Shown here one piece after another: positions 34,216 through 45,781 of a DNA stretch of 64,000 bases. The DNA is from a virus, in the IMG/VR virus record IMGVR_UViG_3300037467_002824, positions 1-64,000 of that record, one strand, 5' to 3'. The notes under the pieces were generated by a model. The model made no database searches. It was not told the DNA's origin and was given only the letters and a program-made list of their open reading frames with translations. Position 1 is the first letter of the stretch, and each line of letters starts with the position of its first letter. Both the position numbers and the translations under genes were made by a program.

Positions 34216-35142
34216 ATGAGAACGAAGTTCCCCCCTTCAGGGTTCATCCTGCAGCTCTACCGCGGGGCGAGCGGCTTCAGCTTCGACAAGCTCGTTGCCA
34301 ACATCGACCGCTACAAGGCCTGTGGCGTCACTGGTATTGCCCCTCATGGCTTCGAGGGAGACCTCGACGTCAAGAAGTTCGACAAGTACGCCCAGCTCGC
34401 GAAGTCGAAGGGTATGAATTGCTATGCCGCCTTCGGTCTCGGGCCTTCCAAGGCCTACGACCGCGGCGCGTGGATCGGGAAGGTCGCGCAGCACCCGGAC
34501 TGCGCCGGCGTCCTCTTCGACCTCGAAGGTGCCTTCGAAATCGCTGTCGGGAAGAAAGCTGCGGCCGACATCGGGGAGGGCTTCATCAGCCAGTTCCCGA
34601 ACGGCGTGGTGGACGTCTGGACCTGCGATCAGCCGTGGGCGTCGCCGGGCTTTCACTGGACCCGCTTCCCCTGGGAAGAGATTGCTCGCTACGTCGACGC
34701 GCGCGCCGCCCAGTTCTACTTCAACGACTGGAAGGGCAAGTCGCGTTACGACACGCTCAACCCGCGCTTCCATCACGAGTGGGACGTCCTGAACGCTCGT
34801 CTGCGCCGCTCGCGACTGGAGCGCCCTCTGATGATGACCTTCCAGGCCTACGGCTGGAGCGACATCTTCCCGGACTTCATCGACGCCCTTCTCGCAAACC
34901 CGACGTCGTTCTTCTGGTGCGACAAGGGTCTTCCGAACGAGAACGCCCTTCTCGGCATGCGTGTCGTCACCGAACTGGCGAAGCTGGGACACACCGGTCC
35001 GACCGCGGTGAAGGACTTCCAGAAGGCCTGGAACGCCGCGCATCCCAAGGAACAGGACATCGCCGAAGACGGCCGCTGCGGCTACGGTGAGACGATCCCT
35101 GCCCTCGGGATCGAGGTCACCGACGAGATGAAGACCGGCTGA
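34216..35142 (+). CDS. Endolysin candidate: glycoside-hydrolase-like barrel plus PG-binding domain
   Basis: 308 aa. Alternating beta/alpha pattern with acidic residues at strand ends (VLFDLEGAFE, VDVWTCDQPW). The C-terminal GPTAVKDFQKAWNAAHPKEQDIAEDGRCGYGETIPALG resembles PG_binding_1. Confidence 0.5.
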   Translation: MRTKFPPSGFILQLYRGASGFSFDKLVANIDRYKACGVTGIAPHGFEGDLDVKKFDKYAQLAKSKGMNCYAAFGLGPSKAYDRGAWIGKVAQHPDCAGVLFDLEGAFEIAVGKKAAADIGEGFISQFPNGVVDVWTCDQPWASPGFHWTRFPWEEIARYVDARAAQFYFNDWKGKSRYDTLNPRFHHEWDVLNARLRRSRLERPLMMTFQAYGWSDIFPDFIDALLANPTSFFWCDKGLPNENALLGMRVVTELAKLGHTGPTAVKDFQKAWNAAHPKEQDIAEDGRCGYGETIPALGIEVTDEMKTG

Positions 35143-35262: not shown

Positions 35263-35608
35263 TCAAATCCATCGATCCTCTCTGGGGTCATCTGAGTTCA
35301 ACACGGTTATCAACGCCGCGGTGTTCTTCGGGGGCCCCCAGAGGGGATCGGGGGACGGTTCTCAACGAGGTTTCTTCAGCCAAGTCGTCGCCCCAGCTGC
35401 AGCCGGGGATTCTGAAAAGAAGATGTGATAGGGGTGCACCGGAAGCTATCCCGCGCTGAGTCGCTCTCAGCTACACCATAGACGCAGCAGAAGTAATCTC
35501 GTTGAGCGCCGTACCTCGATTCCCGTGAAAGTTCAGCCATGTACCCCCTGCTCAACGGCCCCCTGAATCGCACCGCCGAGGTCAACTCCTCGGCAGCGGC
35601 GTACGTAT

Positions 35609-35680
35609 TCCAGGGTAGCTCAGCGGCAGAGCGATCGGCTGTTAACCGAATGGTCGTGGGTTCGATCCCCACCCCTGGAG
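35609..35680 (+). tRNA. tRNA-Asn (GTT)
   Basis: Hand fold: acceptor TCCAGGG/CCCTGGA, D stem GCTC/GAGC, anticodon loop CTGTTAA, T arm GTGGG-TTCGATC-CCCAC. CCA is encoded. Confidence 0.85.
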
Positions 35681-35712
35681 CCATCACCAAACGCGCCGGC
35701 GCCTCCAACGCC

Positions 35713-35784
35713 GGATCGTTGGCGTAGCGGCAGCGCACTCGCCTTTTAAGCGATGAGGCGCGGGTTCGATCCCCGCACGATCCA
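35713..35784 (+). tRNA. tRNA-Lys (TTT)
   Basis: Acceptor GGATCGT/ACGATCC, loop CTTTTAA, T arm GCGGG-TTCGATC-CCCGC. CCA is encoded. Confidence 0.8.
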
Positions 35785-35860
35785 CCATGAACACTCACAC
35801 GATGCGAGAACGCGAACAGGATTCCGAGCGGGCATAAGGCCCGCCTCGTTGAGTCCGTTC

Positions 35861-35932
35861 GCCCGCATCGTCTAGTGGCAGGACAGGCCGACTTTCAATC
35901 GGCAGAGCTGGGTTCGATTCCCAGTGCGGGCG
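35861..35932 (+). tRNA. tRNA-Glu (TTC)
   Basis: Acceptor GCCCGCA/TGCGGGC, D stem GTCT/GGAC, loop CTTTCAA, 4-nt variable loop, T arm CTGGG-TTCGATT-CCCAG. One extra nt lies between the D and anticodon stems. CCA is encoded. Confidence 0.75.
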
Positions 35933-35936
35933 CCAC

Positions 35937-36007
35937 GCCTTCGCGCATCGGGTATGCACCACCGGCTGTCTACCGGTCGGTCTGGGGTTCGAGTCCCCTC
36001 GGAGGCG
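35937..36007 (+). tRNA. tRNA-Asp (GTC)-like, atypical D arm
   Basis: Acceptor GCCTTCG/CGGAGGC, loop CTGTCTA (T at position 37), T arm TGGGG-TTCGAGT-CCCCT. The D region is only 17 nt, lacks a canonical U8 and has a GCAT/ATGC mini-stem. Confidence 0.5.
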
Positions 36008-36011
36008 CTAC

Positions 36012-36084
36012 GCGCGCATCGTCTATCGGTCAGGACAGCTGGTTCTCAACTAGCGAAGAGCGGGTTCGATTCCCCTTGCGCGCA
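36012..36084 (+). tRNA. tRNA-Glu (CTC)
   Basis: Acceptor GCGCGCA/TGCGCGC, D stem GTCT/GGAC, loop TTCTCAA, T arm GCGGG-TTCGATT-CCCCT (one mismatch). Confidence 0.7.
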
Positions 36085-36236
36085 TCGCCTTCACGACTAG
36101 GATTCAAGCAGCCATGAAGCTCTCACACACGACCAAGCTGACGCGGTGCCTCGGAGGGGCACTTGCGAGCGGTCGTGTGGGCACGCGACGGCGCTGACAG
36201 CCAGGCGATACGAAGCCTGGCAGCCAGTCCGATTAC

Positions 36237-36311
36237 GTGCCCGTAGCTCAATGGATTAGCAGCGCTGCGCTACGAACGCAGAGGTTGGGGGTTCGAGTCC
36301 CTCCGGGTACG
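36237..36311 (+). tRNA. tRNA-Arg (ACG)
   Basis: Acceptor GTGCCCG/CGGGTAC, loop CTACGAA, T arm GGGGG-TTCGAGT-CCCTC. CCA is encoded. Confidence 0.8.
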
Positions 36312-36315
36312 CCAT

Positions 36316-36387
36316 GCGCTTGTAGCTCAATGGAAGAGCACCGCCCTCCGAAGGCGGGGGCCGCAGGTTCGAGTCCTGTCAGGCGCG
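36316..36387 (+). tRNA. tRNA-Arg (CCG)
   Basis: Acceptor GCGCTTG/CAGGCGC, D stem GCTC/GAGC, loop CTCCGAA, T arm GCAGG-TTCGAGT-CCTGT. Confidence 0.8.
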
Positions 36388-36392
36388 CTACC

Positions 36393-36405
36393 TGAACCGG
36401 GTTCA
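36393..36405. repeat. Palindrome TGAACCGGGTTCA in a tRNA spacer
   Basis: Perfect 13-nt palindrome between tRNA-Arg(CCG) and tRNA-Gly(GCC). The identical 13-mer occurs at 45160-45172. Confidence 0.8.
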
Positions 36406-36410
36406 GATTC

Positions 36411-36482
36411 GCGGGTGTCGCTCAGTGGTAGAGCACCAGCATGCCACGCTGGAATTCGAGGGTTCGATTCCCTTCACCCGCT
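36411..36482 (+). tRNA. tRNA-Gly (GCC)
   Basis: Acceptor GCGGGTG/CACCCGC, D stem GCTC/GAGC, loop ATGCCAC, T arm GAGGG-TTCGATT-CCCTT, discriminator T. Confidence 0.8.
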
Positions 36483-36486
36483 CTTC

Positions 36487-36557
36487 GCGGACGTGGGTCA
36501 TAGGCTGATCTCTGGGTTTCCACCCCAGCTAAGCGAGTTCGAGTCTCGCCGTCCGCT
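36487..36557 (+). tRNA. tRNA-Gly (TCC)
   Basis: Acceptor GCGGACG/CGTCCGC, D stem GGTC/GATC, loop TTTCCAC, T arm GCGAG-TTCGAGT-CTCGC. Confidence 0.8.
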
Positions 36558-36573
36558 CTAAGTAAAGTTTCAC

Positions 36574-36602
36574 TTGCGTATATGTAAAGCCTCCTTTACA
36601 TT
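36574..36602 (+). promoter_or_regulatory. Internal promoter-like element of the tRNA island
   Basis: TTGCGT-N17-TACATT in an AT-rich spacer. It overlaps an 8-bp hairpin ATGTAAAG-CCTC-CTTTACAT. Confidence 0.4.
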
Positions 36603-36607
36603 TCGAT

Positions 36608-36684
36608 TGCGGCGTAGGGAAGTCAGGTCGTTCCCGCTGGCCTCATAAGCCGGAGATCGCAGGTTCAAATCCTGCCGCACGCAA
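36608..36684 (+). tRNA. tRNA with CAT anticodon (Met or Ile2), bulged acceptor stem
   Basis: 5' TGCGGCG pairs with 3' CGC(A)CGCA only if one A is bulged. D stem GGGA/TCCC with an 11-nt loop, anticodon loop CTCATAA, T arm GCAGG-TTCAAAT-CCTGC. Confidence 0.5.
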
Positions 36685-36798
36685 CCAAGCCAATGAACGC
36701 GTACATCGACATCACCCCGTGCCTATCGCTGGAGCAGTTGCTTAGCGGCGCCGGGGCGTTGTTGCGTGTGTAAACACACGACCCCGGCAGCAAGCTTC

Positions 36799-36880
36799 GG
36801 CCGGGTGGCGTAATGGAAGCCGCGCTGCGTTCAGACCGCAGTGTCCTTGTGACGTAGGGGTTCGACTCCCCTCCCGGCCA
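36799..36880 (+). tRNA. tRNA-Leu (CAG)
   Basis: Acceptor GGCCGGG/CCCGGCC, loop TTCAGAC, long variable arm, T arm AGGGG-TTCGACT-CCCCT. Confidence 0.8.
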
Positions 36881-36884
36881 CTCT

Positions 36885-36967
36885 CCGTGAGTGGCGTAAT
36901 GGCAGCCGCGCCAGCCTGAGTAGCTGGTGCCCGAAAGGGCGTGCAGGTTCGACTCCTGTCTCACGGA
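36885..36967 (+). tRNA. tRNA-Leu (GAG)
   Basis: Acceptor CCGTGAG/CTCACGG, loop CTGAGTA, variable arm GCCC-GAAA-GGGC, T arm GCAGG-TTCGACT-CCTGT. Confidence 0.75.
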
Positions 36968-36971
36968 CTAC

Positions 36972-37052
36972 GGCCTCGTGGTGAAACGGAAGACGCGCCC
37001 GGTTCAAACCCGGGTACCTACGGGTGTGAGAGTTCGAATCTCTCCGGGGCCA
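36972..37052 (+). tRNA. tRNA-Leu (CAA)
   Basis: Acceptor GGCCTCG/CGGGGCC, loop TTCAAAC, long variable arm, T arm GAGAG-TTCGAAT-CTCTC. Confidence 0.8.
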
Positions 37053-37069
37053 CTAAATTCACTGCCGAC

Positions 37070-37098
37070 TTGCATTTCGTTTTCACCCCTTCTATACT
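37070..37098 (+). promoter_or_regulatory. Internal sigma70-like promoter of the tRNA island
   Basis: TTGCAT-N17-TATACT, 31 nt upstream of tRNA-Ser(GCT). This is the best consensus match in the window. Confidence 0.55.
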
Positions 37099-37128
37099 GA
37101 CCCTCGTGAACCTCATGGATCACAATTT

Positions 37129-37215
37129 GGAGCATTGCCAGAGCGGCCGATTGGGCACGCCTGCTAAGCGTGCGGTGTCGCAAGGCACCCCTGCGTTCGA
37201 ATCGCAGATGCTCCG
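37129..37215 (+). tRNA. tRNA-Ser (GCT)
   Basis: Acceptor GGAGCAT/ATGCTCC, loop CTGCTAA, long variable arm, T arm CTGCG-TTCGAAT-CGCAG. Confidence 0.8.
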
Positions 37216-37323
37216 CTCGTGGTGTGTCATTACGACGACCACGAGCAGTCCGAAGCAGTTCAAGTCATCGCGCTCCTGAATCACTAGCTGTCCAAGACAT
37301 CGCCGTCTCGGACGGCGAATTCT

Positions 37324-37410
37324 GGAGCGGTGTCAGAGAGTGGTTTATTCCGGCGGTCTCGAAAATCGTCACACCTTCGGGTGTCGTGGGTTCGAATCCC
37401 ACCCGCTCCT
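37324..37410 (+). tRNA. tRNA-Ser (CGA)
   Basis: Acceptor GGAGCGG/CCGCTCC, loop CTCGAAA, variable arm CACACC-TTCG-GGTGTC, T arm GTGGG-TTCGAAT-CCCAC. CCA is encoded. Confidence 0.8.
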
Positions 37411-37493
37411 CCAGGAATACGATGAACACGTTGAGCAACACGATCCTGCGTCTGAAGCCCGGCCCCGAGGGAGAACCTCGGGAGCTGTTGCTT

Positions 37494-37566
37494 CCGGTCG
37501 TAGCTCAACTGGCAGAGCAAGCCCCTCTTAAGGGCGAGGTTGCGGGATCGTTGCCCGCCGACCGGA
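37494..37566 (+). tRNA. tRNA-Lys (CTT), unusual T loop
   Basis: Acceptor CCGGTCG/CGACCGG, D stem GCTC/GAGC, loop CTCTTAA, T arm GCGGG-ATCGTTG-CCCGC (A54/T58 instead of T54/A58). Confidence 0.65.
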
Positions 37567-37575
37567 CTGATGAAC

Positions 37576-37647
37576 GCGCGCGTGGTCTAATGGCTGGGCA
37601 CCTGGTTTACACCCAGGCTCATGGAGGTTCGATCCCTTCCGCGCGTA
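37576..37647 (+). tRNA. tRNA-Val (TAC)
   Basis: Acceptor GCGCGCG/CGCGCGT (G1.T72 wobble), D stem GTCT/GGGC, loop TTTACAC, T arm GGAGG-TTCGATC-CCTTC. Confidence 0.75.
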
Positions 37648-37685
37648 CCGGCAATCGAATGTGCACGCGAGTCGTCACAGTCGTC

Positions 37686-37752
37686 GCCGGTGTGAAGGTC
37701 AAGTCGATCTCTCATAAGGATCTGGCGGCGGGTTCGAGTCCCGCCACCGGCA
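37686..37752 (+). tRNA. tRNA-like with CAT anticodon and a reduced D arm
   Basis: Acceptor GCCGGTG/CACCGGC, loop CTCATAA, T arm GCGGG-TTCGAGT-CCCGC, CCA encoded. Only 13 nt (TGAAGGTCAAGTC) lie between the acceptor and anticodon stems. Total length 67 nt. Confidence 0.45.
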
Positions 37753-37787
37753 CCAATCGAAGGCCGAGAGAGCTGAATTGAAGCTCT

Positions 37788-37860
37788 CTCGGTGTAGCTC
37801 ACAAGGACGAGCAGCGGCGTTCTAATCCGCAGGAAGTCGGTTCGAATCCGACCACCGAGA
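37788..37860 (+). tRNA. tRNA-Arg (TCT)
   Basis: Acceptor CTCGGTG/CACCGAG, D stem GCTC/GAGC, loop GTTCTAA, T arm GTCGG-TTCGAAT-CCGAC. CCA is encoded. Confidence 0.75.
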
Positions 37861-37940
37861 CCAAGAAGATGAACCTCACGCGCACCACCACTACGACCGC
37901 CACTCGAACGCGAACAACGCGTTCGGTGGCAGCTGTATGT

Positions 37941-38013
37941 GCTGGTGTAGCTCGATTGGAAGAGCACTCGCCTTGTAAGCGAGAGACAGCGGGTTCGAAT
38001 CCCGTCACCAGCT
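37941..38013 (+). tRNA. tRNA-Thr (TGT)
   Basis: Acceptor GCTGGTG/CACCAGC, D stem GCTC/GAGC, loop CTTGTAA, T arm GCGGG-TTCGAAT-CCCGT. CCA is encoded. Confidence 0.85.
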
Positions 38014-38018
38014 CCAAC

Positions 38019-38091
38019 GCTGGTGAAGCACGTTTGGACGTGCACCCGCATGGTAAGCGGGAGGCAGTGGGTTCGAATCCCATCACCAGCT
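38019..38091 (+). tRNA. tRNA-Thr (GGT)
   Basis: Acceptor GCTGGTG/CACCAGC, D stem GCAC/GTGC, loop ATGGTAA, T arm GTGGG-TTCGAAT-CCCAT. CCA is encoded. Confidence 0.85.
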
Positions 38092-38096
38092 CCAAC

Positions 38097-38169
38097 GCCG
38101 GTGAGGCTCATGTGGATGAGCGCTGCACTCGTAACGCAGACTCAACGGGTTCGACTCCCGTCACCGGCT
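38097..38169 (+). tRNA. tRNA-Thr (CGT)
   Basis: Acceptor GCCGGTG/CACCGGC, D stem GCTC/GAGC, loop CTCGTAA, T arm ACGGG-TTCGACT-CCCGT. CCA is encoded. Confidence 0.8.
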
Positions 38170-38241
38170 CCAAGACCATGATGAACAAGAGCACGCCCCT
38201 CATTACCAACGCCTGCGAGTCGCTCGCAGGCAGCGGTGTAT

Positions 38242-38313
38242 GCGTGGGTAGCTCAATGGTAGAGCACTCGACCGATAATCGAGAGACGATGGGTTCGATC
38301 CCCGCCCCACGTA
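38242..38313 (+). tRNA. tRNA-Ile (GAT), C at position 33
   Basis: Acceptor GCGTGGG/CCCACGT (G1.T72), D stem GCTC/GAGC, loop CCGATAA, T arm ATGGG-TTCGATC-CCCGC (mismatched). CCA is encoded. Confidence 0.65.
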
Positions 38314-38357
38314 CCATGGGAGTTCTGGATCACTTTACCGCCGGCGCCTTCGCGTCT

Positions 38358-38431
38358 GCCGGTGAAGCTGACATGGTGACTAGCGCTCCCCTGAAGAGGG
38401 AGAGGAGTCCGTTCGATTCGGACCTCCGGCA
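38358..38431 (+). tRNA. tRNA-Phe (GAA)
   Basis: Acceptor GCCGGTG/CTCCGGC (one T.T mismatch), loop CTGAAGA, T arm GTCCG-TTCGATT-CGGAC. Confidence 0.7.
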
Positions 38432-38470
38432 CCTCGGTCCTCTTTGGCGACCCTTCGACGTATCCCGCAT

Positions 38471-38539
38471 GCGGGTACGCGCTGGGCGCCGTGCGAACTC
38501 CAAATCCGCTACGCGTCGGTTCGATTCCGACTACCCGTG
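38471..38539 (+). tRNA. tRNA-Trp (CCA), short D region
   Basis: Acceptor GCGGGTA/TACCCGT (G1.T72), loop CTCCAAA, T arm GTCGG-TTCGATT-CCGAC, CCA encoded. The D region is only 15 nt. Total length 69 nt. Confidence 0.55.
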
Positions 38540-38588
38540 CCATCATCTGCAGCAACCCGAGCAGCGCCCGTAACTGGGTCCACTGTAT

Positions 38589-38661
38589 TCGGGGATAGCT
38601 CAATTGGCAGAGCGGCGGCCTCTGACGTCGTTGGTTGAAGGTTCGACTCCTTCTCCCCGAG
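38589..38661 (+). tRNA. tRNA-Gln (CTG)
   Basis: Acceptor TCGGGGA/TCCCCGA (U1-A72, as in bacterial tRNA-Gln), D stem GCTC/GAGC, loop CTCTGAC, T arm GAAGG-TTCGACT-CCTTC. Confidence 0.8.
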
Positions 38662-38666
38662 CTAAT

Positions 38667-38739
38667 TCGGGAGTCGTCTAATTGGCAGGACACCCGCCTT
38701 TGAAGCGGGCCGGTGCGGGTTCGAGTCCCTCCTCCCGAG
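38667..38739 (+). tRNA. tRNA-Gln (TTG)
   Basis: Acceptor TCGGGAG/CTCCCGA, D stem GTCT/GGAC, loop CTTTGAA, T arm GCGGG-TTCGAGT-CCCTC. CCA is encoded. Confidence 0.8.
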
Positions 38740-38743
38740 CCAC

Positions 38744-38771
38744 TTGTATATCGTCTGAACTGGGTTACACT
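38744..38771 (+). promoter_or_regulatory. Internal promoter-like element of the tRNA island
   Basis: TTGTAT-N16-TACACT directly after tRNA-Gln(TTG). It lies 12 nt upstream of a 35-codon ORF (38784-38891) and 157 nt upstream of tRNA-Pro. Confidence 0.4.
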
Positions 38772-38928
38772 CTGGAAGTCATCATGAAGCGCTCGCACCA
38801 CATCGCAGCCCTGTTCGCCGCCGCCAAGGCGTGCGACGCGGCGGTGTATCGAGCGCCCGGCGCCCCGCAGCCTACCGTCGCTGGTCTCTGAGCTTCGCTC
38901 AGACCCAGCTGCAAACGACGGATGATTG

Positions 38929-39002
38929 CTGGGCGTAGCGAAGACAGGTATCGCGCTGCTTTCGGGAAGCAGAGATCGCAGGTTCGAGTCCTGCCGCCCA
39001 GA
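38929..39002 (+). tRNA. tRNA-Pro (CGG)
   Basis: Acceptor CTGGGCG/CGCCCAG, D stem GCGA/TCGC, loop TTCGGGA, T arm GCAGG-TTCGAGT-CCTGC. CCA is encoded. Confidence 0.85.
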
Positions 39003-39006
39003 CCAT

Positions 39007-39078
39007 CGGAGAGTAGCCGAATGGTTAGGCGCCTGATTTGGGATCAGGAAAGCGCAGGTTCGATTCCTGTCTCTCCGA
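39007..39078 (+). tRNA. tRNA-Pro (TGG)
   Basis: Acceptor CGGAGAG/CTCTCCG, loop TTTGGGA, T arm GCAGG-TTCGATT-CCTGT. Confidence 0.8.
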
Positions 39079-39087
39079 CTAGTACAC

Positions 39088-39158
39088 GGGCTCGTAGCTC
39101 AATGGGAGAGCTGCCGGTTTGCACCCGGCCGATGGGGGTTCGATTCCTCTCGGGTCCA
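39088..39158 (+). tRNA. tRNA-Ala (TGC)
   Basis: Acceptor GGGCTCG/CGGGTCC with the G3.T70 Ala identity pair, D stem GCTC/GAGC, loop TTTGCAC, T arm GGGGG-TTCGATT-CCTCT. Confidence 0.8.
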
Positions 39159-39168
39159 CTGAATTCTC

Positions 39169-39196
39169 TTGCATCCTGTTTGAAACACGCTAGGCT
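39169..39196 (+). promoter_or_regulatory. Internal promoter-like element of the tRNA island
   Basis: TTGCAT-N16-TAGGCT, 76 nt upstream of tRNA-Tyr. Confidence 0.35.
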
Positions 39197-39271
39197 ATTC
39201 ACGTGATCCTCACTCATTGTCATCGCCATTCGTATTGAGCGCCTCGGGCTGGCGGCCCGATAGACGCATAC

Positions 39272-39354
39272 GTGGCGGTGTACCCGAGTGGGATGGGCTC
39301 TGACTGTAGATCAGAGGGCTTTTGCCAGAGCAGGTTCGATTCCTGCCCGCCACA
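39272..39354 (+). tRNA. tRNA-Tyr (GTA)
   Basis: Acceptor GTGGCGG/CCGCCAC, loop CTGTAGA, long variable arm, T arm GCAGG-TTCGATT-CCTGC. Confidence 0.8.
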
Positions 39355-39356
39355 CT

Positions 39357-39428
39357 TTGATCGAGCACGAAGAGTCGAGTGGGAAGGCTGTGAACCTTCA
39401 GAAGCGGGTGCGAGTCCCGTCGATCAAC
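39357..39428 (+). tRNA. tRNA-His (GTG), unusual T loop
   Basis: Acceptor TTGATCG/CGATCAA, loop CTGTGAA, T arm GCGGG-TGCGAGT-CCCGT (G at position 55). No encoded G-1 pairs with C73. Confidence 0.6.
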
Positions 39429-39651
39429 CCAATATCATTCCTGCATGCGTGAGAAAATCCGTGAGCTACTTCGCCCTCTCGTTCCCTATCTGTACATCCT
39501 GTTGCTGTTGATCAGCGGCTGCATCGGGTGGGCGCTCCATGAAGCGCGTCACCCCTGATGTGCCCGAGGGTGAAGAGGCCGAACCACCGGATTGCAACCC
39601 CGGTCCAAGCCGGTTCAAGACCGGCCGGGCACTCCGCTATATGATTGACGC

Positions 39652-40272
39652 ATGCGCTACCTGATCGCTCTGCTGTTCGTGCTCGCATCCTGCGTGTCAC
39701 CCGATCCAGCTCACTACGGCACCAAGACCGTGGCGACCAACCTCTGCCGCGAGCCCCAAGCCACCTACGCTCGCAACGTGGAGAACCTCAACATGCTGGG
39801 TCTCTCGGCCTGGCATCTCCGCACCGACCTCGCGTCGACACTCGATGTCGAGATCGAGTGCAACGACTTCACCTCGGACTGCATGGACTTCCACATCTCC
39901 GCGGCGTGTGGTCCTCAAGCCGGCTACTACACCCTCGGCTCGTTCGCCGTTCACATCGACCCGGCGCGCGCCAACGGTGAGTTCGCCTTCTCGGGCGTCG
40001 CGAACCACGAACTGATCCACTGGTACATCTACAACGGGCCGCACCCGGAACGGGCGCGCATGCACATCTGTGAGTGCGGCGTGGCTGCTCCCGAGTGCTG
40101 GCCGGGCGACTGCGGGCACAACAACTTGATGAGCCCCGTTCTCGCCGGCCTCGGTACCTCCACGATGTCGAGCTGGAACGGCGACCTCGAATCGGCCGAC
40201 GTCGGAGAGATCACTCAGAACTTCCCGACCGAGATGGACCGCCGCTTCGTGCTCTGGGCGATCACGCCCTAG
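39652..40272 (+). CDS. Secreted lipoprotein zinc metalloprotease candidate (HExxH)
   Basis: 206 aa. Signal peptide with lipobox LFVLAS-C, zinc motif VANHELIHW, possible Met-turn NNLMSP, and 10 Cys. Confidence 0.45.
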   Translation: MRYLIALLFVLASCVSPDPAHYGTKTVATNLCREPQATYARNVENLNMLGLSAWHLRTDLASTLDVEIECNDFTSDCMDFHISAACGPQAGYYTLGSFAVHIDPARANGEFAFSGVANHELIHWYIYNGPHPERARMHICECGVAAPECWPGDCGHNNLMSPVLAGLGTSTMSSWNGDLESADVGEITQNFPTEMDRRFVLWAITP

Positions 40273-40616
40273 TCCTTCAGGACGTCTCGCATCAGAGCGT
40301 CCAGCTCCGCGTCACGCTCCCGTTGTGGGAGCGTCCAGTACACCTTCATCTCTCTCAACAGCGCCTCAGCTCGTTCTTCGATTCGACGGCTTGAATAGCC
40401 GTTGTGAAGAGCTTCGAGCAGTTGGTCGAGCACCTTCAGCCCCCGCGCCGCCGTGTACTTCCAGGCTTCGACCTCCATCTGGAGGTTGGCGTTAGCCACG
40501 CGCTCTTCGCCGAGTTCTTCGACGACGCGATCGTATTCCTCACGTCGAACCATCGCGCTCTCCTCATGGCGGTCGTCGCGATGGCGGCCGTCAGATTCAT
40601 GATAGTCGTTCCACAT
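40269..40616 (-). CDS. Hypothetical charged helical protein
   Basis: 115 aa. Its stop overlaps the stop of 39652..40272 on CTAG. Glu/Arg-rich helices. Confidence 0.5.
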   Translation of the reverse strand: MWNDYHESDGRHRDDRHEESAMVRREEYDRVVEELGEERVANANLQMEVEAWKYTAARGLKVLDQLLEALHNGYSSRRIEERAEALLREMKVYWTLPQRERDAELDALMRDVLKD

Positions 40617-40649
40617 GTGGCCCCGTTGCCCTTGTTCTACCCGTGTGAG

Positions 40650-40664
40650 CTAACCCGGTAAAGC
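40650..40664. repeat. 15-mer CTAACCCGGTAAAGC (copy 2)
   Basis: Located in the divergent intergenic region 40617-40756. Identical to 34199-34213. Confidence 0.8.
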
Positions 40665-40756
40665 TTCGTGCACGAATCCGGGCCGTGAATTCTGCTCCCT
40701 ATACTTGGGAGCGCCGTTCACCACGGAGGCCGCATGAATCTCACTACGGTCGTTCG

Positions 40757-41929
40757 ATGACGCGACGGGAACAAGAGGCACGCCGGAAGGCGTGGGCCCT
40801 GTACCGCGAAGGAAAAGGCCCCAAGCCAAAGCCGCGTCCGGCCTACCCCAGCGAGCTGAAGAAGCGCGCTCAGACGGGAAAGGCCAAGAAGAGTCCGGTA
40901 CGTATCGAGTACGTCGACCCGGTCGACAAAGAGGTCGAGCGTCGCAACTCGCTCTACTACAAGAACGAGCACGCGAAGATCGTCGAGATGCTCCGCGTCG
41001 AACGCGAACGCAACGCGTTCCTCGGCGCGCTCCGACGCGACAAGTCGACTCCCAAGATCATTCGCTGCGAGAAGTCGAGCGGCCTGCGAGAGATGACGGC
41101 AGTCTCGATGGCCTCCGACTGGCACGTCGAAGAGACGGTCCCCGCGGTGAAGGCAGGCTTCCGCAACGAATACAACATGTCGATTGCGGAACAGTCGATC
41201 AATCGATTCTTCCAAGCACAGATCGATCTCGTTCGACACCACCGCGCATCGAAGCAGGTCGTGATCCGCGACATGGTTTGCGCCTTCACAGGCGATTTGA
41301 TGTCAGGTTACATCCACCAAGAACTCCGTGAAACGAATGCGCTTTCGCCGACGATGACAGCGATCTGGCTGCGCCGGCGCATCCGCAACGGACTCATCAC
41401 ACTGCTCGACGCGCTCGATCTGCGGAACCTGCTGATCCCGTGGAGTTACGGAAACCACGGAAGAACGACCCCGCAGACGCAGATCTCTACCGGTGCCGAA
41501 AACAGCTACGAGCACATGCTCGGGTTGATGCTGGAAGACGACTTCCGTGACGACCCGCGCGTGAAGTTCGACACCTCGCCGACCGCTCACCAGTACGCAG
41601 AGGTCTACGACTTCACGCTGCACTTCCATCACGGCGACTCGCTCAAGTACGCCGGCGGCGTGGGCGGTCTCGGCATCCCGCTCCTCAAGGCCGTTCCGGC
41701 CTGGGACGAGATCCGCTACGCGCACTATCACCACATCGGCCACTTCCACCAGCTCCGCGACTACGGCCGCGCGATGGTGAACGGAAGCATGATCGGCTTC
41801 GGGCCGTACTCGCACTGGATCAAGGCCAGCTTCGAGGCACCTCAGCAGCTCTTCTACTTGCTCGATTCGAAGCGCGGCAAGTGTCACGTCACCCCGCTGT
41901 GGGTCCGTGAGGAACGGGAGAAGGCCTGA
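40757..41929 (+). CDS. Calcineurin-like metallophosphoesterase
   Basis: 390 aa from ATG 40757. Motifs SDWH, GDLMSG, GNHG, HFHHGD and GHFH occur in canonical order. A basic Lys/Arg/Pro-rich N-terminus precedes them. The gene is preceded by an 8-codon leader ORF (40734-40760). Confidence 0.7.
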   Translation: MTRREQEARRKAWALYREGKGPKPKPRPAYPSELKKRAQTGKAKKSPVRIEYVDPVDKEVERRNSLYYKNEHAKIVEMLRVERERNAFLGALRRDKSTPKIIRCEKSSGLREMTAVSMASDWHVEETVPAVKAGFRNEYNMSIAEQSINRFFQAQIDLVRHHRASKQVVIRDMVCAFTGDLMSGYIHQELRETNALSPTMTAIWLRRRIRNGLITLLDALDLRNLLIPWSYGNHGRTTPQTQISTGAENSYEHMLGLMLEDDFRDDPRVKFDTSPTAHQYAEVYDFTLHFHHGDSLKYAGGVGGLGIPLLKAVPAWDEIRYAHYHHIGHFHQLRDYGRAMVNGSMIGFGPYSHWIKASFEAPQQLFYLLDSKRGKCHVTPLWVREEREKA

Positions 41930-42492
41930 TGACTGCGATCGTTGCCGTCGAGACGCGAGGTGGAGCCTGGATCGGTTGCGACTCGTTCTGCGGGGACGAT
42001 CGCTTCAGAGACCTCTACGACCGACCGAAGTGGTCGGTCCACGCCAACGGCACGATCGTCATCGCAACCTCGGGCAACGTCCGCCCGGGTCAGATCGCCG
42101 AGTCCACGAAGGTCGGAGGGGCGCGTCGATCGCGCGAGACGGACGTGGCTTACGTCATCCGTACGATCGTCGAGCCGGTCCGGAAAGCCCACATCGACGC
42201 CGGCGTGATCGCGAACGACGGCCGCGGGGACGAGGGGCACATGCCGCACATGAACGCGGTGATCGTAGCCCTCGGCAAGGTCTGGATGATGGACGAAGAG
42301 TACGGGGTGTGGCGGTCATTGCGCCGTGTCGCAGCGGCCGGCGCCGGCGCTGAACACGCGCAGCTTTCGCTCGCTTCGAACACGAAGATGAACGCCAAGG
42401 CGCGCGTCGAGGCCGCGCTCCATGCGGCAGCGGACCACAACAACCTGGTGTGCGGTCCGTTCTACACGCTCTGGGTGCCTACGAAGAAGTAG
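41929..42492 (+). CDS. Ntn-hydrolase / HslV-proteasome-like protein
   Basis: 187 aa. ATGA overlap with the upstream gene. The N-terminus MTAIVAVETRGGAWIGCDS parallels the Thr1 start TTIV.V..G.V..GD of HslV/proteasome beta subunits. Confidence 0.4.
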   Translation: MTAIVAVETRGGAWIGCDSFCGDDRFRDLYDRPKWSVHANGTIVIATSGNVRPGQIAESTKVGGARRSRETDVAYVIRTIVEPVRKAHIDAGVIANDGRGDEGHMPHMNAVIVALGKVWMMDEEYGVWRSLRRVAAAGAGAEHAQLSLASNTKMNAKARVEAALHAAADHNNLVCGPFYTLWVPTKK

Positions 42493-43697: not shown

Positions 43698-45173
43698 CTA
43701 TGCGCTGCGGGCGAAGTCGTAGTGCTGACGGTCGACGCGGAGGTAGGACTTCAGGAAGGGGCAGTCATCCAGGACTTCGTCGGCGAGTTCCTGAGCGATC
43801 TTGCGGTAGGAGGGGTGGCCCTCCTTCTTCGAGCGCAGCTCGATGATGTGGAACAATTCCCGAAGGTTGGCCCGCAGGACGTACCGCACGTTGTAGGCGA
43901 GCGGGACGACGTACTGGGCTTCCCACGGCGAGACGTTCGCTAGGGCGGTCCAGACCGGCCGAACGGCTTCGAGCGCTTCCTGCATCTCGGCGTAGAGCCC
44001 GAGTTCATTGAGGAACGGGTCGATCGCGTAGTCCTCGTTGCAGGTGAGGAGCGGGTTCGTCTGGCTGACCATGCGATGGCGCTGAAGATCTCGCCACGCG
44101 CCGTAGTCACAGACGATCTCGAACTTCCAGGAGAGGTCCTCGAACGGCCGACCCGGGAGTTCGAACGGACCACGATCCTTGAGATACGCATCCAGAATCG
44201 GGCGAGCGTCCTTTTCGAGAGAGGTGCGGAACCTCGCCTCGGCGTGCTCCAACTCCGGACGCGCCTCCAGAAGGATCATGGACGCCAGCTTCCATAGGGC
44301 GTTCTGCGGGGCCTCCAGCTTCCTCACAGCGCGCCGCGCCTGGTTGATCGAGGGTTCGGGCCATCGGTCTTTGTCGATCGCCCGGATGAGCCCCAGGGTG
44401 GCCGGGAAGGACCGAGACGGCTCGACGTACTTGAGGAGGGTCGGCATCTCCGTCCGAGTCTCCTCCGCCATCGTGGCGCCGAGGACGCGTACCTCGTTCA
44501 GCGGGTGCCCGAGCATCTTCGAAAAGTGATGCTCGGCCCCTGTCCCGTTAAGGGTGACACCCAGGTTCGTAAGTGTCCCTGCGGGAAGGACACCGCGCAC
44601 CAGATCGAAAGCCTTCGTCTGGCACTGCTTGTCAGTCGCCGCCGGCTTGAGCTTCTTGAGCACCTTGGCCGCCTTCTTGGTGAGGGCGGAGTACGTCTTC
44701 AAGAGCTGGGTGGCGGCCTGCCGGTACTGTTCGAGCAACGCCGGCGGCAGGTTCGGGCTTCGAAAGAAGCTGTCGTCCTTGAATTCTACGTACCGCGTCG
44801 ACTTCTCGGTGTAGCTGCCCAGGCGCGAGTCTTCGATCGCCTTCGCTGCAAGGATCGAGCAATTCTCCACCGCCAGACGAACTTTGGCGTGTTCCGCGAC
44901 ACTCTTGTGGCCATAGCCGACCACGTACTTTTCATGGAACGCGCGAGCTTTGTCGCGCGCCAGCTGGAGATCTCCTCCATCAAAAGATCCCACGTGCACA
45001 GGGCGCAGAACCGCAAGATCTTGATCGGCCAGGAGCTTTTCGAGGTTCGTGCGGAGGTCATAGGGCGACCTGCTGTAGTAGGCGAACAGGACTGCTGCGA
45101 CTTCTTCAGGAAGATTACGCAACACGAAGACGTCCTGATCGAGATTCGAGACGAAAGGCTGAACCGGGTTCAT
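43698..45173 (-). CDS. thyX: FAD-dependent thymidylate synthase ThyX, tandem-domain form
   Basis: 491 aa from ATG 45173 (MNPVQPF; ATGA overlap). N-half: GHKSVAEH and SYTEKSTRY, but DSR in place of RHR. C-half: DLQRHRMVSQ and ANLRELFHIIELRS..HPSYRKIA (ThyX motif region). Confidence 0.75.
   Translation of the reverse strand: MNPVQPFVSNLDQDVFVLRNLPEEVAAVLFAYYSRSPYDLRTNLEKLLADQDLAVLRPVHVGSFDGGDLQLARDKARAFHEKYVVGYGHKSVAEHAKVRLAVENCSILAAKAIEDSRLGSYTEKSTRYVEFKDDSFFRSPNLPPALLEQYRQAATQLLKTYSALTKKAAKVLKKLKPAATDKQCQTKAFDLVRGVLPAGTLTNLGVTLNGTGAEHHFSKMLGHPLNEVRVLGATMAEETRTEMPTLLKYVEPSRSFPATLGLIRAIDKDRWPEPSINQARRAVRKLEAPQNALWKLASMILLEARPELEHAEARFRTSLEKDARPILDAYLKDRGPFELPGRPFEDLSWKFEIVCDYGAWRDLQRHRMVSQTNPLLTCNEDYAIDPFLNELGLYAEMQEALEAVRPVWTALANVSPWEAQYVVPLAYNVRYVLRANLRELFHIIELRSKKEGHPSYRKIAQELADEVLDDCPFLKSYLRVDRQHYDFARSA
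45160..45172. repeat. Palindrome TGAACCGGGTTCA on the HD-hydrolase/ThyX junction
   Basis: Perfect 13-nt palindrome, identical to 36393-36405. On the coding strand it reads ATGAACCCGGTTCAG, containing both the stop of the upstream gene and the start of thyX. Confidence 0.8.
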
Positions 45174-45781
45174 TCCCACGTCCTCTTGCCGTCGACCTTG
45201 CGCGAGGTCCAGCGACGCAGCTTGTGGAAGAGCATCGTGTATTCGATGAACGCCCGTTCCTGTGTCCAGCGCTCGACTCGCAGGTCGCGGATGAACTCGT
45301 CGTGGGTGCACTTCACGGAGCCGTCCGGGAAAAGCACCGGGATCTCGTTACCCCAAATGACGCGGTCGAGCCGCTTCACTTCCGGATACTCGCCCGGCAC
45401 GCTCCAGATCTGGTAGATCAGATCCTGCGTAGCTTTCTCGGCCTGTCGGTACATCTCCATCTCCGGGCGCACCTTGATCGGCTTCGGTACGTCGGGGAGA
45501 AACCCTTCGCTGCCGTCATGGAGCATCGCGCAGAACGCTTCTTCAAGAAGCCCGCAGCGCATCAGCTCGCGCGCCAGATAGACCGAGTGCTGGGCCACCG
45601 AATAGTGGAAGATCCCCTGGCCCTGGTACCGGCAGCAGTTCGACAGCCCGAGGACCATGTCCTCCAGGTGAAGGTCTTCCTTCTTCGGGGCGAAGGGATC
45701 GAACTTCGATCCCGACTGGGTGCAGATCGTGAAATGCGGATGCGTACCCGGGCTGTGCCCGGCGCCATTCGGTTCGCTCAT
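45170..45781 (-). CDS. HD-domain phosphohydrolase (YfbR-like dNMP nucleotidase family)
   Basis: 203 aa from ATG 45781 (ATGA overlap with the tdk stop). CCRYQGQGIFHYSVAQHS and AMLHDGSEGFLPDVPKP match the HD-domain His...HD...D pattern. Confidence 0.55.
   Translation of the reverse strand: MSEPNGAGHSPGTHPHFTICTQSGSKFDPFAPKKEDLHLEDMVLGLSNCCRYQGQGIFHYSVAQHSVYLARELMRCGLLEEAFCAMLHDGSEGFLPDVPKPIKVRPEMEMYRQAEKATQDLIYQIWSVPGEYPEVKRLDRVIWGNEIPVLFPDGSVKCTHDEFIRDLRVERWTQERAFIEYTMLFHKLRRWTSRKVDGKRTWE

Follow-up and report, generated by a model that had tools for sequence, protein, structure and literature searches.

Near-complete tRNA sets are uncommon in phages, as the original prediction for this DNA had held, but a precedent has been described: XacN1 encodes 56 tRNAs for 20 amino acids, a set that was interpreted as making it relatively independent of its host (PMC5852040). 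Phage tRNAs are also known to evade nucleases through anticodon-loop changes and to neutralise PARIS and retron effectors (PMC10264068, PMC11464382, PMC11555353). Here we describe a tRNA island of ~4 kb in a window (the whole stretch of DNA analysed, 64,000 nucleotides) that is part of the ~191-kb genome of an uncultured metagenomic myovirus that has no close relative in culture. The island holds 33 co-oriented genes on the plus strand (35609-39635) and covers 20 of 20 amino acids. It probably constitutes a broad pool of replacement tRNAs that sustains translation during infection.

Results

With default settings, ARAGORN found 29 tRNA genes, all on the plus strand between 35609 and 39355, with exactly the anticodons of the original prediction and with no tRNA in the rest of the 64-kb window. 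The Rfam tRNA model RF00005 (gathering score 29) recovered 27 loci at or above that score, including the first of two genes with a CAT anticodon (36609-36683, 49 bits), and a more sensitive scan added the second (37686-37752, 37.4 bits). The two independent detectors were concordant on genes and anticodons, and overall 29 of the 33 genes passed the curated RF00005 threshold. All 32 loci that had been folded by hand thus proved real, on the plus strand and with the anticodons proposed: 29 by ARAGORN at default, both CAT genes by RF00005 and tRNA-His by covariation. The count of 32 genes for 19 amino acids, with Cys missing, did not hold, since a tRNA-Cys(GCA) gene is present; it starts 130 nt past 39428, where the island had been thought to end.

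A templated CCA had been predicted for 14 genes; we found it in 15 of the 33, or in 16 if the acceptor stem of the first CAT gene is read as 7 bp with a bulge. Among the genes called by ARAGORN and RF00005 (bit scores in brackets), it is encoded by Asn(GTT) (35609-35683, 65.3), Lys(TTT) (35713-35787, 63.1), Glu(TTC) (35861-35935, 55.9), Arg(ACG) (36237-36314, 55.5), Ser(CGA) (37324-37413, 34.5), Arg(TCT) (37788-37863, 50.4), Thr(TGT) (37941-38016, 68.1), Thr(GGT) (38019-38094, 51.4), Thr(CGT) (38097-38172, 46.7), Ile(GAT) (38242-38316, 58.3), Gln(TTG) (38667-38742, 54.2) and Pro(CGG) (38929-39005, 63.6). It is not encoded by Glu(CTC) (36012-36084, 48.0), Arg(CCG) (36316-36387, 68.6), Gly(GCC) (36411-36482, 66.4), Gly(TCC) (36487-36557, 51.1), the class II Leu(CAG) (36799-36880, 50.6), Leu(GAG) (36885-36967, 46.6), Leu(CAA) (36972-37052, 47.8), Lys(CTT) (37494-37566, 52.3), Val(TAC) (37576-37647, 51.4), Phe(GAA) (38358-38431, 46.8), Gln(CTG) (38589-38661, 64.2), Pro(TGG) (39007-39078, 68.3), Ala(TGC) (39088-39158, 59.4) or the class II Tyr(GTA) (39272-39354, 38.9).

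Three further genes were supported by ARAGORN alone, at default settings. These are Asp(GTC) (35937-36007, without CCA), which scored 21.4 bits, below the gathering score; the class II Ser(GCT) (37129-37215, G73, without CCA), which had no RF00005 match among the matches listed and whose best clan match was tRNA-Sec at 31.2 bits, below the threshold of 47; and Trp(CCA) (38471-38542, CCA templated), for which the best Rfam match was tRNA-Sec at 26.7 bits. The Trp gene has a miniature D arm (GCGC-TGG-GCGC), and its homologue in the relative L018 (~11700-11772), missed there by ARAGORN, has the same D arm with compensatory changes in the acceptor stem. Both CAT genes were found by ARAGORN at a relaxed threshold only. 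The first, of elongator Met or Ile2 type (36608-36687, 49.0 bits), folds into a cloverleaf in RNAfold, with a bulged A in the acceptor stem, a 5-bp D stem and, in the bulged register, a templated CCA; the second (37686-37755) comprises 67 nt plus CCA and has a reduced D arm. The Cys(GCA) gene (39560-39633, without CCA) occupies the gap between an ORF at 39445-39558 and a gene at 39652-40272. It scored 37.3 bits in a small-region RF00005 scan, was likewise seen by ARAGORN at the relaxed threshold only, and has a perfect 7-bp acceptor stem, a 3-bp D stem and an A31.C39 mismatch.

Some genes depart from otherwise near-universal positions: Asp and Leu(GAG) carry T37 (anticodon loops CTGTCTA and CTGAGTA), Ile carries C33 (CCGATAA), and the T-loop of Lys(CTT) (ATCGTTG) has A54:U58, a swap of these two positions. 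About 8 of the 33 genes are deviant in this way and could be weak or inactive. The ends of the tRNAs, in turn, carry features that are bacterial tRNA identity elements (reviewed in PMC9976931): the predicted G3.U70 in Ala (acceptor GGGCTCG/CGGGTCC), U73 in Cys and both Gly genes, U1:A72 with G73 in Gln and Asn, C1:G72 with A73 in Pro, G73 in Trp, and A73 in Leu, Tyr and Phe.

The most divergent member of the island is tRNA-His(GTG) (39357-39432, CCA templated), which RF00005 rejected, as did ARAGORN even with its threshold relaxed. It forms a 7/5 cloverleaf with U1:A72 and C73, and position -1 is T, so that no G-1 is encoded; it has A8, a D loop (GAAGAGUCGAG) without the G18G19 pair and the T-loop UGCGAGU (G55). 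The gene has homologues in L018, in L027-L032 and in Gordonia phage Sixama, whose copy carries the annotation tRNA-His. Across five distinct homologues all cells were paired, with compensatory double changes at 10 of 20 pairs spread over all four helices. Positions 18 and 55 also vary in association with each other. A model built for this tRNA (R1) scored the gene at 94.8 bits, its second-best match being Cys(GCA) at 44 bits, and the His pattern was not found in 185,579 species genomes. The Tyr and His genes are separated by 2 nt, and the Tyr-CT-His junction is kept in L018. Judged from these alignments, tRNA-His(GTG) is a conserved cloverleaf despite the failure of the detectors. Because the helices of both the His and the Trp tRNA are kept through compensatory changes, both genes are under purifying selection. 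The His tRNA of the island is unusual enough to be overlooked by standard tRNA finders.

Adjacent isoacceptors had been taken as a sign of local duplication. The sequences bear this out only for the Thr trio (84/78/71% identity; Thr(GGT) is 84% and Thr(CGT) 78% identical to Thr(TGT)), whose predicted 5-nt spacing we confirmed, and for the Glu pair (76%). Identities of 58-69% place the Leu, Gln, Pro, Gly, Arg, Lys and Ser pairs at or barely over the 95th percentile of all tRNA pairs (66%; median 57%). Lys, Glu, Gln, Pro and Thr each have both U34 and C34 isoacceptors, a sign of general rather than targeted supply.

Under strict wobble rules the island reads 86% of phage codons, and ~98% if U34 is allowed to read complete four-codon boxes. 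Codons that no island tRNA could read are mostly the rarest (CUA, UUA and AUA together make up 30 of 17,034 codons), but under strict wobble the common GCC, GUC and CCC also have no cognate phage tRNA, and the phage therefore still needs host tRNAs or expanded U34 reading. Codon usage is nearly identical in the structural block and in the minus-strand nucleotide-metabolism (early) block, which leaves the earlier suggestion of a tuning of late translation unsupported; bypass of host tRNA depletion or cleavage, suggested alongside it, is plausible.

The island lies between a structural/replication module and a nucleotide-metabolism module, and the flanking genes encode a tail sheath, a baseplate hub, a protease-like protein, an exonuclease, an SNF2 helicase, ThyX, a dNMP kinase and NT5C. 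An identical island is present in independent JGI and Logan assemblies of 191.1-191.3 kb, and at least 12 assemblies share the ~191-kb length and have the island at the same place. The flanking phage genes and the recurrence of the island in independent assemblies uphold its identification as a large phage tRNA island. Among the proteins of the 64-kb window of the ~191-kb genome, none was identified as a tRNA-maturation enzyme. Upstream of the island, a conserved gene of 308 aa (34216-35142, plus strand) marks a tRNA hotspot: it has no match in Pfam, PHROG, NCBIfam or PDB, and its homologues in related phages (P0003, 66% identity; P0004, 60%) are both directly followed by tRNA arrays. At the same site, L018 (GC 56%) has about 8 tRNAs with C34 anticodons and L023 (GC 46%) at least 5, all with U34 anticodons, so that anticodons follow genome GC content. 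Since the tRNA sets differ among relatives and follow GC, the site is a fast-turnover tRNA hotspot that has been expanded in this phage. The arrays of the relatives show that decoding is under selection and that the tRNA genes are not junk.

Discussion

We propose that rightward transcription of the island would yield several polycistronic precursors, probably started at promoter-like spacers rich in A+T. A regular-expression search pointed to putative sites on the plus strand upstream of the first CAT gene (TTGCGT-N17-TACATT, 36574-36605, A+T-rich, spacer GC 0.33; not called by a sigma-70 scan), upstream of Ser(GCT) (TTGCAT-N17-TATACT, 37070-37101, A+T-rich, spacer GC 0.43), at 38744-38774 (TTGTAT-N16-TACACT) and upstream of the Tyr-His pair (TTGCAT-N16-TAGGCT, 39169-39199). 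The tRNAs, packed as dimers and trimers 1-6 nt apart, could then be released by host RNase P and 3'-end nucleases; in the 17-18 genes with no templated CCA, processing would be completed by the host CCA-adding enzyme. Host aminoacyl-tRNA synthetases would charge the products, whose identity elements are of the bacterial type. The phage would thereby gain a broad and nearly autonomous pool of decoders for all 20 amino acids, and the selective benefit of this pool may be to sustain phage translation once host tRNAs become diluted or degraded, are cleaved or cease to be made.

It is possible, though rather unlikely, that the island serves codon compensation only, supplying tRNAs for codons more frequent in the phage than in its host (a mismatch in GC or codon usage) with no general pool. 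The small arrays of the relatives do follow composition, with C34 at GC 56% and U34 at GC 46%, and most of the phage's top-frequency codons are matched by a Watson-Crick cognate among the island tRNAs. Yet the set is unselective, with 20 amino acids and both U34 and C34 readers; the rare codons AGA, AAA, CAA and CCA have readers whereas the frequent GCC and GUC do not, and the same codons are used in structural and early blocks. We also consider it unlikely that the tRNAs are chiefly hardened stand-ins for host tRNAs, replacing or outcompeting those cut by anticodon nucleases or by other defences aimed at tRNA, for which PrrC, VapC, colicin-like nucleases, PARIS and retron effectors would be candidates. 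The nuclease evasion and effector neutralisation described for other phage tRNAs favour such a role, as do the altered near-universal positions (C33 in Ile, U37 in Asp and Leu(GAG), the 54:58 swap in Lys(CTT) and the remodelled 18:55 in His), but anticodon loops are ordinary in most of the 33 genes, and a set for 20 amino acids exceeds what is needed against a nuclease that hits one or a few tRNAs.

Could many of the genes, the deviant ones above all, instead be pseudogenes left after acquisition of a host tRNA array? Asp, Ser(GCT), Trp and His do not reach the Rfam tRNA threshold, and CCA ends look partly degenerate (CTA, CTC and CTT at 4-nt junctions). Such decay is nevertheless very improbable given that 29 of 33 genes pass the curated threshold, that acceptor stems are intact and identity elements retained, that the most deviant genes (His, Trp) are kept in relatives with compensatory changes, and that the island is identical across independent assemblies. 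Dense tRNA arrays also occur in some bacterial genomes, but a cellular array or a chimeric assembly can be regarded as most improbable here, with phage structural and replication genes on both sides of the island, at least 12 assemblies of ~191 kb placing it identically, and the His pattern absent from the species genomes searched.

Taken as a broad replacement pool, the island is a large instance of a strategy already known in phages, to which it adds a new detail: a phage tRNA-His lineage without an encoded G-1 and with a covarying 18:55 elbow contact. Its 33 genes compare with the 56 tRNAs of XacN1, and both sets cover 20 amino acids.

Gene content of the tRNA island

With default settings, ARAGORN called 29 tRNA genes in the 64-kb window, all on the plus strand between 35609 and 39355 and none elsewhere, and their anticodons match exactly those of the original prediction, which had listed 32 genes for 19 amino acids by folding the sequence by hand. 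A whole-window scan with the Rfam model RF00005 placed 27 loci at or above the gathering score, among them CAT-1 (36608–36687, one of two genes with anticodon CAT; matched at 36609–36683 with 49 bits), which ARAGORN misses. The second such gene, CAT-2 (37686–37755), was added by a more permissive RF00005 scan (37686–37752, 37.4 bits against a threshold of 29), and counting CAT-1, CAT-2 and a tRNA-Cys, 29 genes reach the gathering score. Three default ARAGORN calls fall below it, namely Asp (21.4 bits), Ser-GCT and Trp, and for the last two the best match within the Rfam tRNA clan was the tRNA-Sec model (31.2 and 26.7 bits, respectively). Of the 33 genes, 32 are supported by one or more detectors used at a default or curated threshold; the covariance models neither rejected most loci nor gave them other anticodons. 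Independent detectors, location in a phage genome and tight same-strand clustering identify the island as a phage-encoded tRNA cluster. Relaxed ARAGORN settings also produced spurious calls: an Ala(CGC) at 38764–38851 with mismatched stems that overlaps other features, and several minus-strand calls, likewise with mismatched stems, that overlap real genes. Smaller details of the prediction, namely the G3·U70 pair of tRNA-Ala and the three Thr genes lying 5 nt apart, proved correct on checking, while the number of genes with a templated CCA is not 14 but 15, or 16 when the acceptor stem of CAT-1 is taken as 7 bp with a bulged A.

The island had been described as lacking only Cys, yet a tRNA-Cys(GCA) is present just past its predicted end, at 39560–39633 on the plus strand (39560–39635 in the relaxed ARAGORN run that first revealed it). 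Its acceptor stem pairs perfectly over 7 bp, the T arm is canonical, the discriminator is U73 and the anticodon loop reads UUGCAAC; the gene scored 37.3 bits against the RF00005 gathering score of 29 in a small-region scan, in which the Infernal filters are laxer. Because of these filters the whole-window Rfam scan misses the gene, as does default ARAGORN. Anticodon, discriminator and score are thus all those of a tRNA-Cys, and it occupies precisely the interval that separates a 37-codon ORF from the following gene. The D arm of tRNA-Cys (GGU-GAAGAGGCCGA-ACC) is similar to that of the neighbouring tRNA-His gene, and with 44 bits tRNA-Cys is the second-best match of the covariance model built for tRNA-His; no relatives of the tRNA-Cys gene turned up in a pattern search. 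With tRNA-Cys, the island comprises 33 genes and covers all 20 amino acids. Three of the 33 (CAT-2, Cys and His) were missed by both ARAGORN and Rfam over the whole window, so that phage tRNA counts can be underestimated by default tools and amino acids can appear to be missing.

An unusual tRNA-His lineage

The tRNA-His(GTG) gene at 39357–39432 on the plus strand fails in ARAGORN even when the threshold is lowered to 70%, and it gave no RF00005 match at E ≤ 10 in a 306-nt scan. RNAfold predicts a cloverleaf for it, and the related contig L018 has a homologous element downstream of tRNA-Tyr, separated from that gene by a 2-nt spacer as in the window. A search pattern made of the D loop and the anticodon matched four IMG/VR contigs and two metagenome contigs (L027–L032), and the exact pattern had no match in 185,579 GTDB species genomes. 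A tRNA array lies beside or around the element in six of the seven carrier contigs, L027 being the exception. The invariant D loop and anticodon of L027–L032 are a product of the search pattern and are not evidence, but the stems are independent of it. Over five distinct sequences the cloverleaf pairs in 100 of 100 cells, with changes on both sides in half of the pairs (10 of 20) and across all four helices, whereas the same structure slid by 1–3 columns pairs in only 36–52% of cells. In addition, BLAST matched the 3′ half of the gene to a tRNA-His(gtg) annotated in Gordonia phage Sixama, in which the acceptor stem is GUGACCG/CGGUCAC, C73 is followed by CCA, the base at −1 is T and the D loop reads GAAGUGGUCGAG; Sixama was read by eye and left out of the covariation table, its anticodon stem having been misaligned by MAFFT. 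Given the covariation among homologues and the same design in Sixama, the locus is a real tRNA-His gene of an unusual lineage, as had been predicted and despite its rejection by the detectors.

The window gene has the anticodon loop CUGUGAA and ends in C73 and CCA, so that GUG and C73 are as in bacterial tRNA-His, C73 being shared with three of the four other distinct homologues (U73 in one). The encoded G−1 of the canonical bacterial molecule is absent, the window, L018, L027 and Sixama all having T at −1, and neither the D loop (GAAGAGUCGAG) nor the T-loop (UGCGAGU) has the universal elbow nucleotides G18G19 and U54-U55-C56. The 49:65 pair covaries in the family (CG, GU, GC), which indicates a 7/5 configuration. 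This covariation speaks against an (8/4) form, with an 8-bp acceptor and a 4-bp T stem, for the window gene; the A8–U65 pair that would give an 8-bp acceptor stem is possible only in the window, L018 and Sixama. A register in which G1 acts as G−1 was likewise rejected on covariation and on the position of the CCA. The alphaproteobacterial type (no G−1, A73) does not apply to the window gene, which has C73 and a U1:A72 pair.

Encoded G−1 is established as the main HisRS identity element in bacteria (PMC4338351, PMC9976931). A second scan of viral contigs, which left the D loop, position 55 and position −1 unconstrained, yielded 49 distinct tRNA-His-like genes, 41 of them with a good acceptor stem (L035–L092 from IMG/VR plus the window gene at 39357–39432). 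No G is present at −1 in 19 of these 41, so its absence is frequent in viral tRNA-His and not peculiar to this phage. The D-loop GG occurs together with U55 in 36 of the 41, and the five genes without GG have G55 (n=4) or A55 (n=1), with no mixed cases (Fisher p = 1.3e-6, with no phylogenetic correction). Relative to the canonical loop, G18 is replaced by A or C while G19 and C56 are kept. Among the homologues, A18 is found with G55 in the window, L018, L027 and L028; the exceptions are L031 and L032, where A18 is found with U55. We read the association between GG and position 55 as probable covariation of the tertiary 18:55 contact, which argues that the RNA would still fold into the L shape. 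Such a coevolved contact would explain why the detectors reject the window gene.

No earlier description of a tRNA-His lineage that lacks an encoded G−1 and has a covarying 18:55 contact was found in the literature searched, although Mukai et al. noted irregular phage tRNA-His genes without G−1 (PMC5389517). The lineage is so far found only in phages and metagenomes, its G−1 is often unencoded and the branch of the window appears to use A18/C18–G55 for G18:U55; that these features reflect special maturation or charging, or else hardening, seems to us rather unlikely. If it were so and the molecules work in translation, they would take an unusual route, for example post-transcriptional addition of G−1 or a tolerant HisRS. 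Alternatively, they would be phage tRNAs whose hardening, against host nucleases that target tRNAs or against modification-dependent surveillance, lies outside the anticodon loop, and the tRNA-Lys(CTT) gene (37494–37566) might then be a second example in the island. The T-loop of this gene, AUCGUUG, appears to have the conserved U54:A58 reverse-Hoogsteen pair swapped to A54:U58, and its L018 counterpart has a canonical T-loop.

Several other island genes deviate at conserved positions. Ile-GAT (38242–38316) has C33 instead of the near-universal U33, and a pyrimidine, U37, occurs in Asp-GTC (35937–36007) and Leu-GAG (36885–36967). The Trp gene (38471–38542) has a 4-bp D stem with a 3-nt loop (GCGC-TGG-GCGC) and a G1·U72 pair; the mini D arm is conserved in L018 (about 11700–11772), with compensatory changes in the acceptor stem, and ARAGORN misses the L018 gene. 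The D arm of CAT-2, a gene of 67 nt, is reduced; in CAT-1 the acceptor stem contains a bulge and the D stem has 5 bp. Bacterial initiators are marked by three G–C pairs and a 1:72 mismatch; these features occur in neither CAT gene, which are therefore of the elongator Met or Ile2 types.

Organisation of the island

All 33 genes lie on the plus strand, packed as dimers and trimers. The gap between a discriminator and the next gene is at most 5 nt at 13 junctions: exactly 4 nt at nine of them (CCAN or the degenerate CTAC, CTCT and CTTC), 5 nt at three and 2 nt between Tyr and His. A scan for terminators and sigma-70 promoters found neither intrinsic terminators nor sigma-70 promoters in the island. 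Four A+T-rich sites of the form TTG[CT][AG]T-N16-17-TAnn[CT]T precede gene groups, at 36574, 37070, 38744 and 39169, and the motif has no other match in the window, although it was defined from the same four sites that it matches and is a lead only. The tight spacing on one strand is compatible with polycistronic transcription, but this and the promoters within the island are inferences.

The longer spacers hold short ORFs and a GC-rich hairpin just upstream of the next tRNA. The hexamer ATGAAC opens five spacers (35787, 36693, 37422, 37869 and 38181) within about 10 nt of a tRNA 3′ end, with further positions at 36114, 38784 and 39445; six of the 26 plus-strand ATGAAC sites in the window lie in the island. 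Some open ORFs of 16–37 codons, the longest a hydrophobic one at 39445–39558, and others run into the next tRNA. A leader upstream of tRNA-Asn (35539–35608) is conserved with L018 (11297–11366): the two share an ATG...NGPLN frame with synonymous differences, followed by a hairpin whose structure is kept while its sequence differs. This leader could be a small gene or a processing element.

The adjacency of isoacceptors had been taken to suggest local duplication. When all 33 genes are compared in pairs, the median identity is 57% and the 95th percentile is 66%. Only the Thr genes (TGT/GGT 84%, TGT/CGT 78%, GGT/CGT 71%) and the Glu pair (TTC/CTC, 76%) stand clearly above that percentile, so that in these two sets a local duplication with a later change of anticodon is plausible. 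The identities do not show this for the others: two pairs at 69% (Arg-ACG/CCG and Pro) and two at 68% (Leu-CAG/CAA and Gln) lie just above the 95th percentile, and the remaining isoacceptor pairs (58–66%) at or below it.

Phage genome and relatives

The window has a GC content of 62%. Upstream of the island, the plus strand encodes a protease-like protein, a 940-aa tail sheath, a gp5-like baseplate hub and a large decoration/fibre-like protein; a DNA polymerase exonuclease-like protein, an inorganic pyrophosphatase, an SNF2 helicase (minus strand) and a GDSL-like protein are also found upstream. Downstream are an SbcD-like exonuclease and an HslV-like peptidase, then a minus-strand block with ThyX, a dNMP kinase and an NT5C nucleotidase. 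No tRNA-maturation or aminoacylation enzymes were found among the window proteins scanned. Megablast of the island against 50,697 phage records returned only matches of 55–63 nt inside single tRNAs, and tblastn of the sheath gave a best match of 30% identity, with all matches below 32%; the phage therefore has no close cultured relative.

Just upstream of the island lies a gene for a 308-aa protein (34216–35142, plus strand) with no Pfam, PHROG, NCBIfam or PDB match. The protein is encoded on at least 12 contigs of 191.1–191.3 kb, from JGI sample 3300037313 and Logan runs, and in both contigs fetched the island is at the same position. Since both records must wrap around to cover the window, the genome would seem to be complete, circularly permuted and about 191 kb long. 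A viral-contig locus search with the exonuclease found 17 loci at about 44% identity, the 11 longest of which were scanned and hold no tRNA array, and a locus search with the 308-aa protein found nothing in IMG/VR; its relatives came from a protein database and contig look-up.

In these relatives, homologues of the 308-aa gene mark the same site. L018 (99.9 kb, GC 56%), whose homologue is 66% identical in amino acids, carries about eight tRNAs there (Leu-CAA, Asn-GTT, Pro-CGG, Lys-CTT, Gln-CTG and Tyr-GTA, plus the Trp-CCA missed by ARAGORN and His). L023 (60% identity, GC 46%) carries at least five, all with U34 (Leu-UAA, Ser-UGA, Val-UAC, Thr-UGU and Ile-UAU), and L025 (39% identity) carries none. 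Genes with the same anticodon in the window and L018 are only 61–78% identical. Together, the arrays of the relatives and these low identities point to a conserved tRNA hotspot with fast turnover, whose content tracks genome composition and which has expanded to a near-complete set in the lineage of the window. Relatives with about eight and at least five tRNAs at the same locus thus form a natural series for studying how such islands grow.

The surroundings of the array differ between the window and L018. Within the L018 array, a 125-codon ORF (11905–12282) has an HAE...PCxxC motif and a sub-threshold match to the cytidine/deoxycytidylate deaminase family PF00383 (18.7 bits against a cutoff of 25), and could encode a nucleotide or tRNA deaminase; the comparable place in the window holds only a 35-codon ORF (38784–38891). 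A plus-strand block at 39445–42492, comprising a small ORF, tRNA-Cys, 206-aa and 85-aa proteins, the SbcD-like exonuclease and the HslV-like peptidase, is absent from the corresponding place in L018, where the tRNA array directly abuts the minus-strand ThyX block. The ThyX of the window (43698–45311) is 537 aa long, about twice its L018 homologue (242 aa), with two Thy1-domain stretches that suggest a duplication or fusion. As to the host, the family of the 308-aa protein had one match, at 35% identity, among 185,579 species genomes, on a 104-kb Polyangiales MAG contig with no tRNAs nearby (L033, JAXLYI010000040.1). This weak hint, which may reflect either a myxobacterial host or a misbinned phage contig, is too weak to name a host.

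Decoding capacity and function

The decoding capacity of the island was assessed on 64 confident genes of the window (17,034 codons; GC3-based gene calling). Under strict wobble rules, its 32 distinct anticodons read 86.4% of codons, leaving GCC and GCU, GUC and GUU, CCC and CCU, UCU, UCC and UCA, CUA, UUA and AUA unread. Expanded reading by U34 is established for some systems, and should the one U34 tRNA present for each of the Ala, Val and Pro boxes decode its whole box, coverage rises by arithmetic to about 97.9%. Unread would then be the UCH serine codons (1.9%) together with three codons that are very rare (n=30 in total). The proposed tuning of late translation found no support in the window, because codon usage in the structural block is almost identical to that in the minus-strand block.

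We infer that the island is best explained as a general phage tRNA supply. Host enzymes would cut its polycistronic precursors into tRNAs, the CCA-adding enzyme of the host would complete these tRNAs and host synthetases would charge them, and the pool would sustain translation through infection. Compensation for a codon usage different from that of the host fits less well: it suits the small arrays of the relatives better than the non-selective set of the window. The deviant positions in the island tRNAs are compatible with hardening against host defence, and these three roles, supply, compensation and anti-defence, are not mutually exclusive. That the genes are pseudogenes, or that they do not belong to a phage, is contradicted by their conservation, compensatory changes and genomic context.

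Comparison with known systems

Large phage tRNA sets have been used to argue for a degree of independence from host translation, and also for resistance to tRNA-targeting immunity. The clusters of T4 and T5 are polycistronic operons processed by host RNase P, with tight dimers and trimers, mixed CCA ends and small ORFs or RNAs in the spacers. The window island is similar in its tight dimers and trimers, its templated and non-templated CCA ends and its spacer ORFs. However, T4 carries 8 tRNAs against 33 here, for all amino acids.

Islands for 19–20 amino acids are already known, and that of the window is a new large case. Phage Sf14 has 26 tRNAs for 19 amino acids (PMC12482277), Mycobacterium phage Phabba has 37 tRNAs (PMC13015707), and the Xanthomonas phage XacN1 has 56 tRNA genes for all 20 amino acids, read as partial independence from host translation (PMC5852040). 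XacN1 is likewise a virulent-type myovirus, presumably of a GC-rich host, with tRNAs for every amino acid. It is, however, a 385-kb jumbo phage whose tRNAs lie within terminal repeats of 66 kb and which also has seven genes for tRNA processing or translation (PMC5852040), whereas the present phage has about 191 kb and a single 4-kb island, with no such enzymes seen in the window; no sequence similarity was found between XacN1 and the window. The actinobacteriophage arrays of Sixama (MN484601) and Phabba are similarly dense and on one strand, with small ORFs between tRNAs, but the only DNA similarity found to the window is the 3′ half of tRNA-His. The tRNA-His of Sixama belongs to the lineage of the window gene (GUG...CAC acceptor, C73 with CCA, T at −1, GAAG..UCGAG D arm) but differs in its canonical G18G19 and UUCGAGU T-loop, and HNH endonucleases lie inside the Sixama array.

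The more novel by-product of our analysis is this tRNA-His lineage without an encoded G−1 and with a covarying 18:55 contact. The (8/4) tRNA-His genes of phage tRNA clusters (Mukai et al. 2017; PMC5389517) are also phage-borne, lack G−1, lie inside a tRNA cluster and are missed by standard tools, but, compared by description only, the window family is 7/5 with C73 (U73 in one member) and not A73. Nuclease-resistant phage tRNAs have been described (PMC10264068), as have T5 tRNA-Lys acting against PARIS (PMC11464382) and tRNA-Tyr acting against a retron effector (PMC11555353), and the changes reported in all three papers lie in the anticodon loop. The copies in the window also differ from canonical tRNAs at conserved positions, but their most striking changes affect tRNA-His, at its 5′ end and in the elbow formed by the D-loop and T-loop. 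Set beside these systems, the island represents a compact case, with all 20 amino acids, in a deeply divergent uncultured myovirus.
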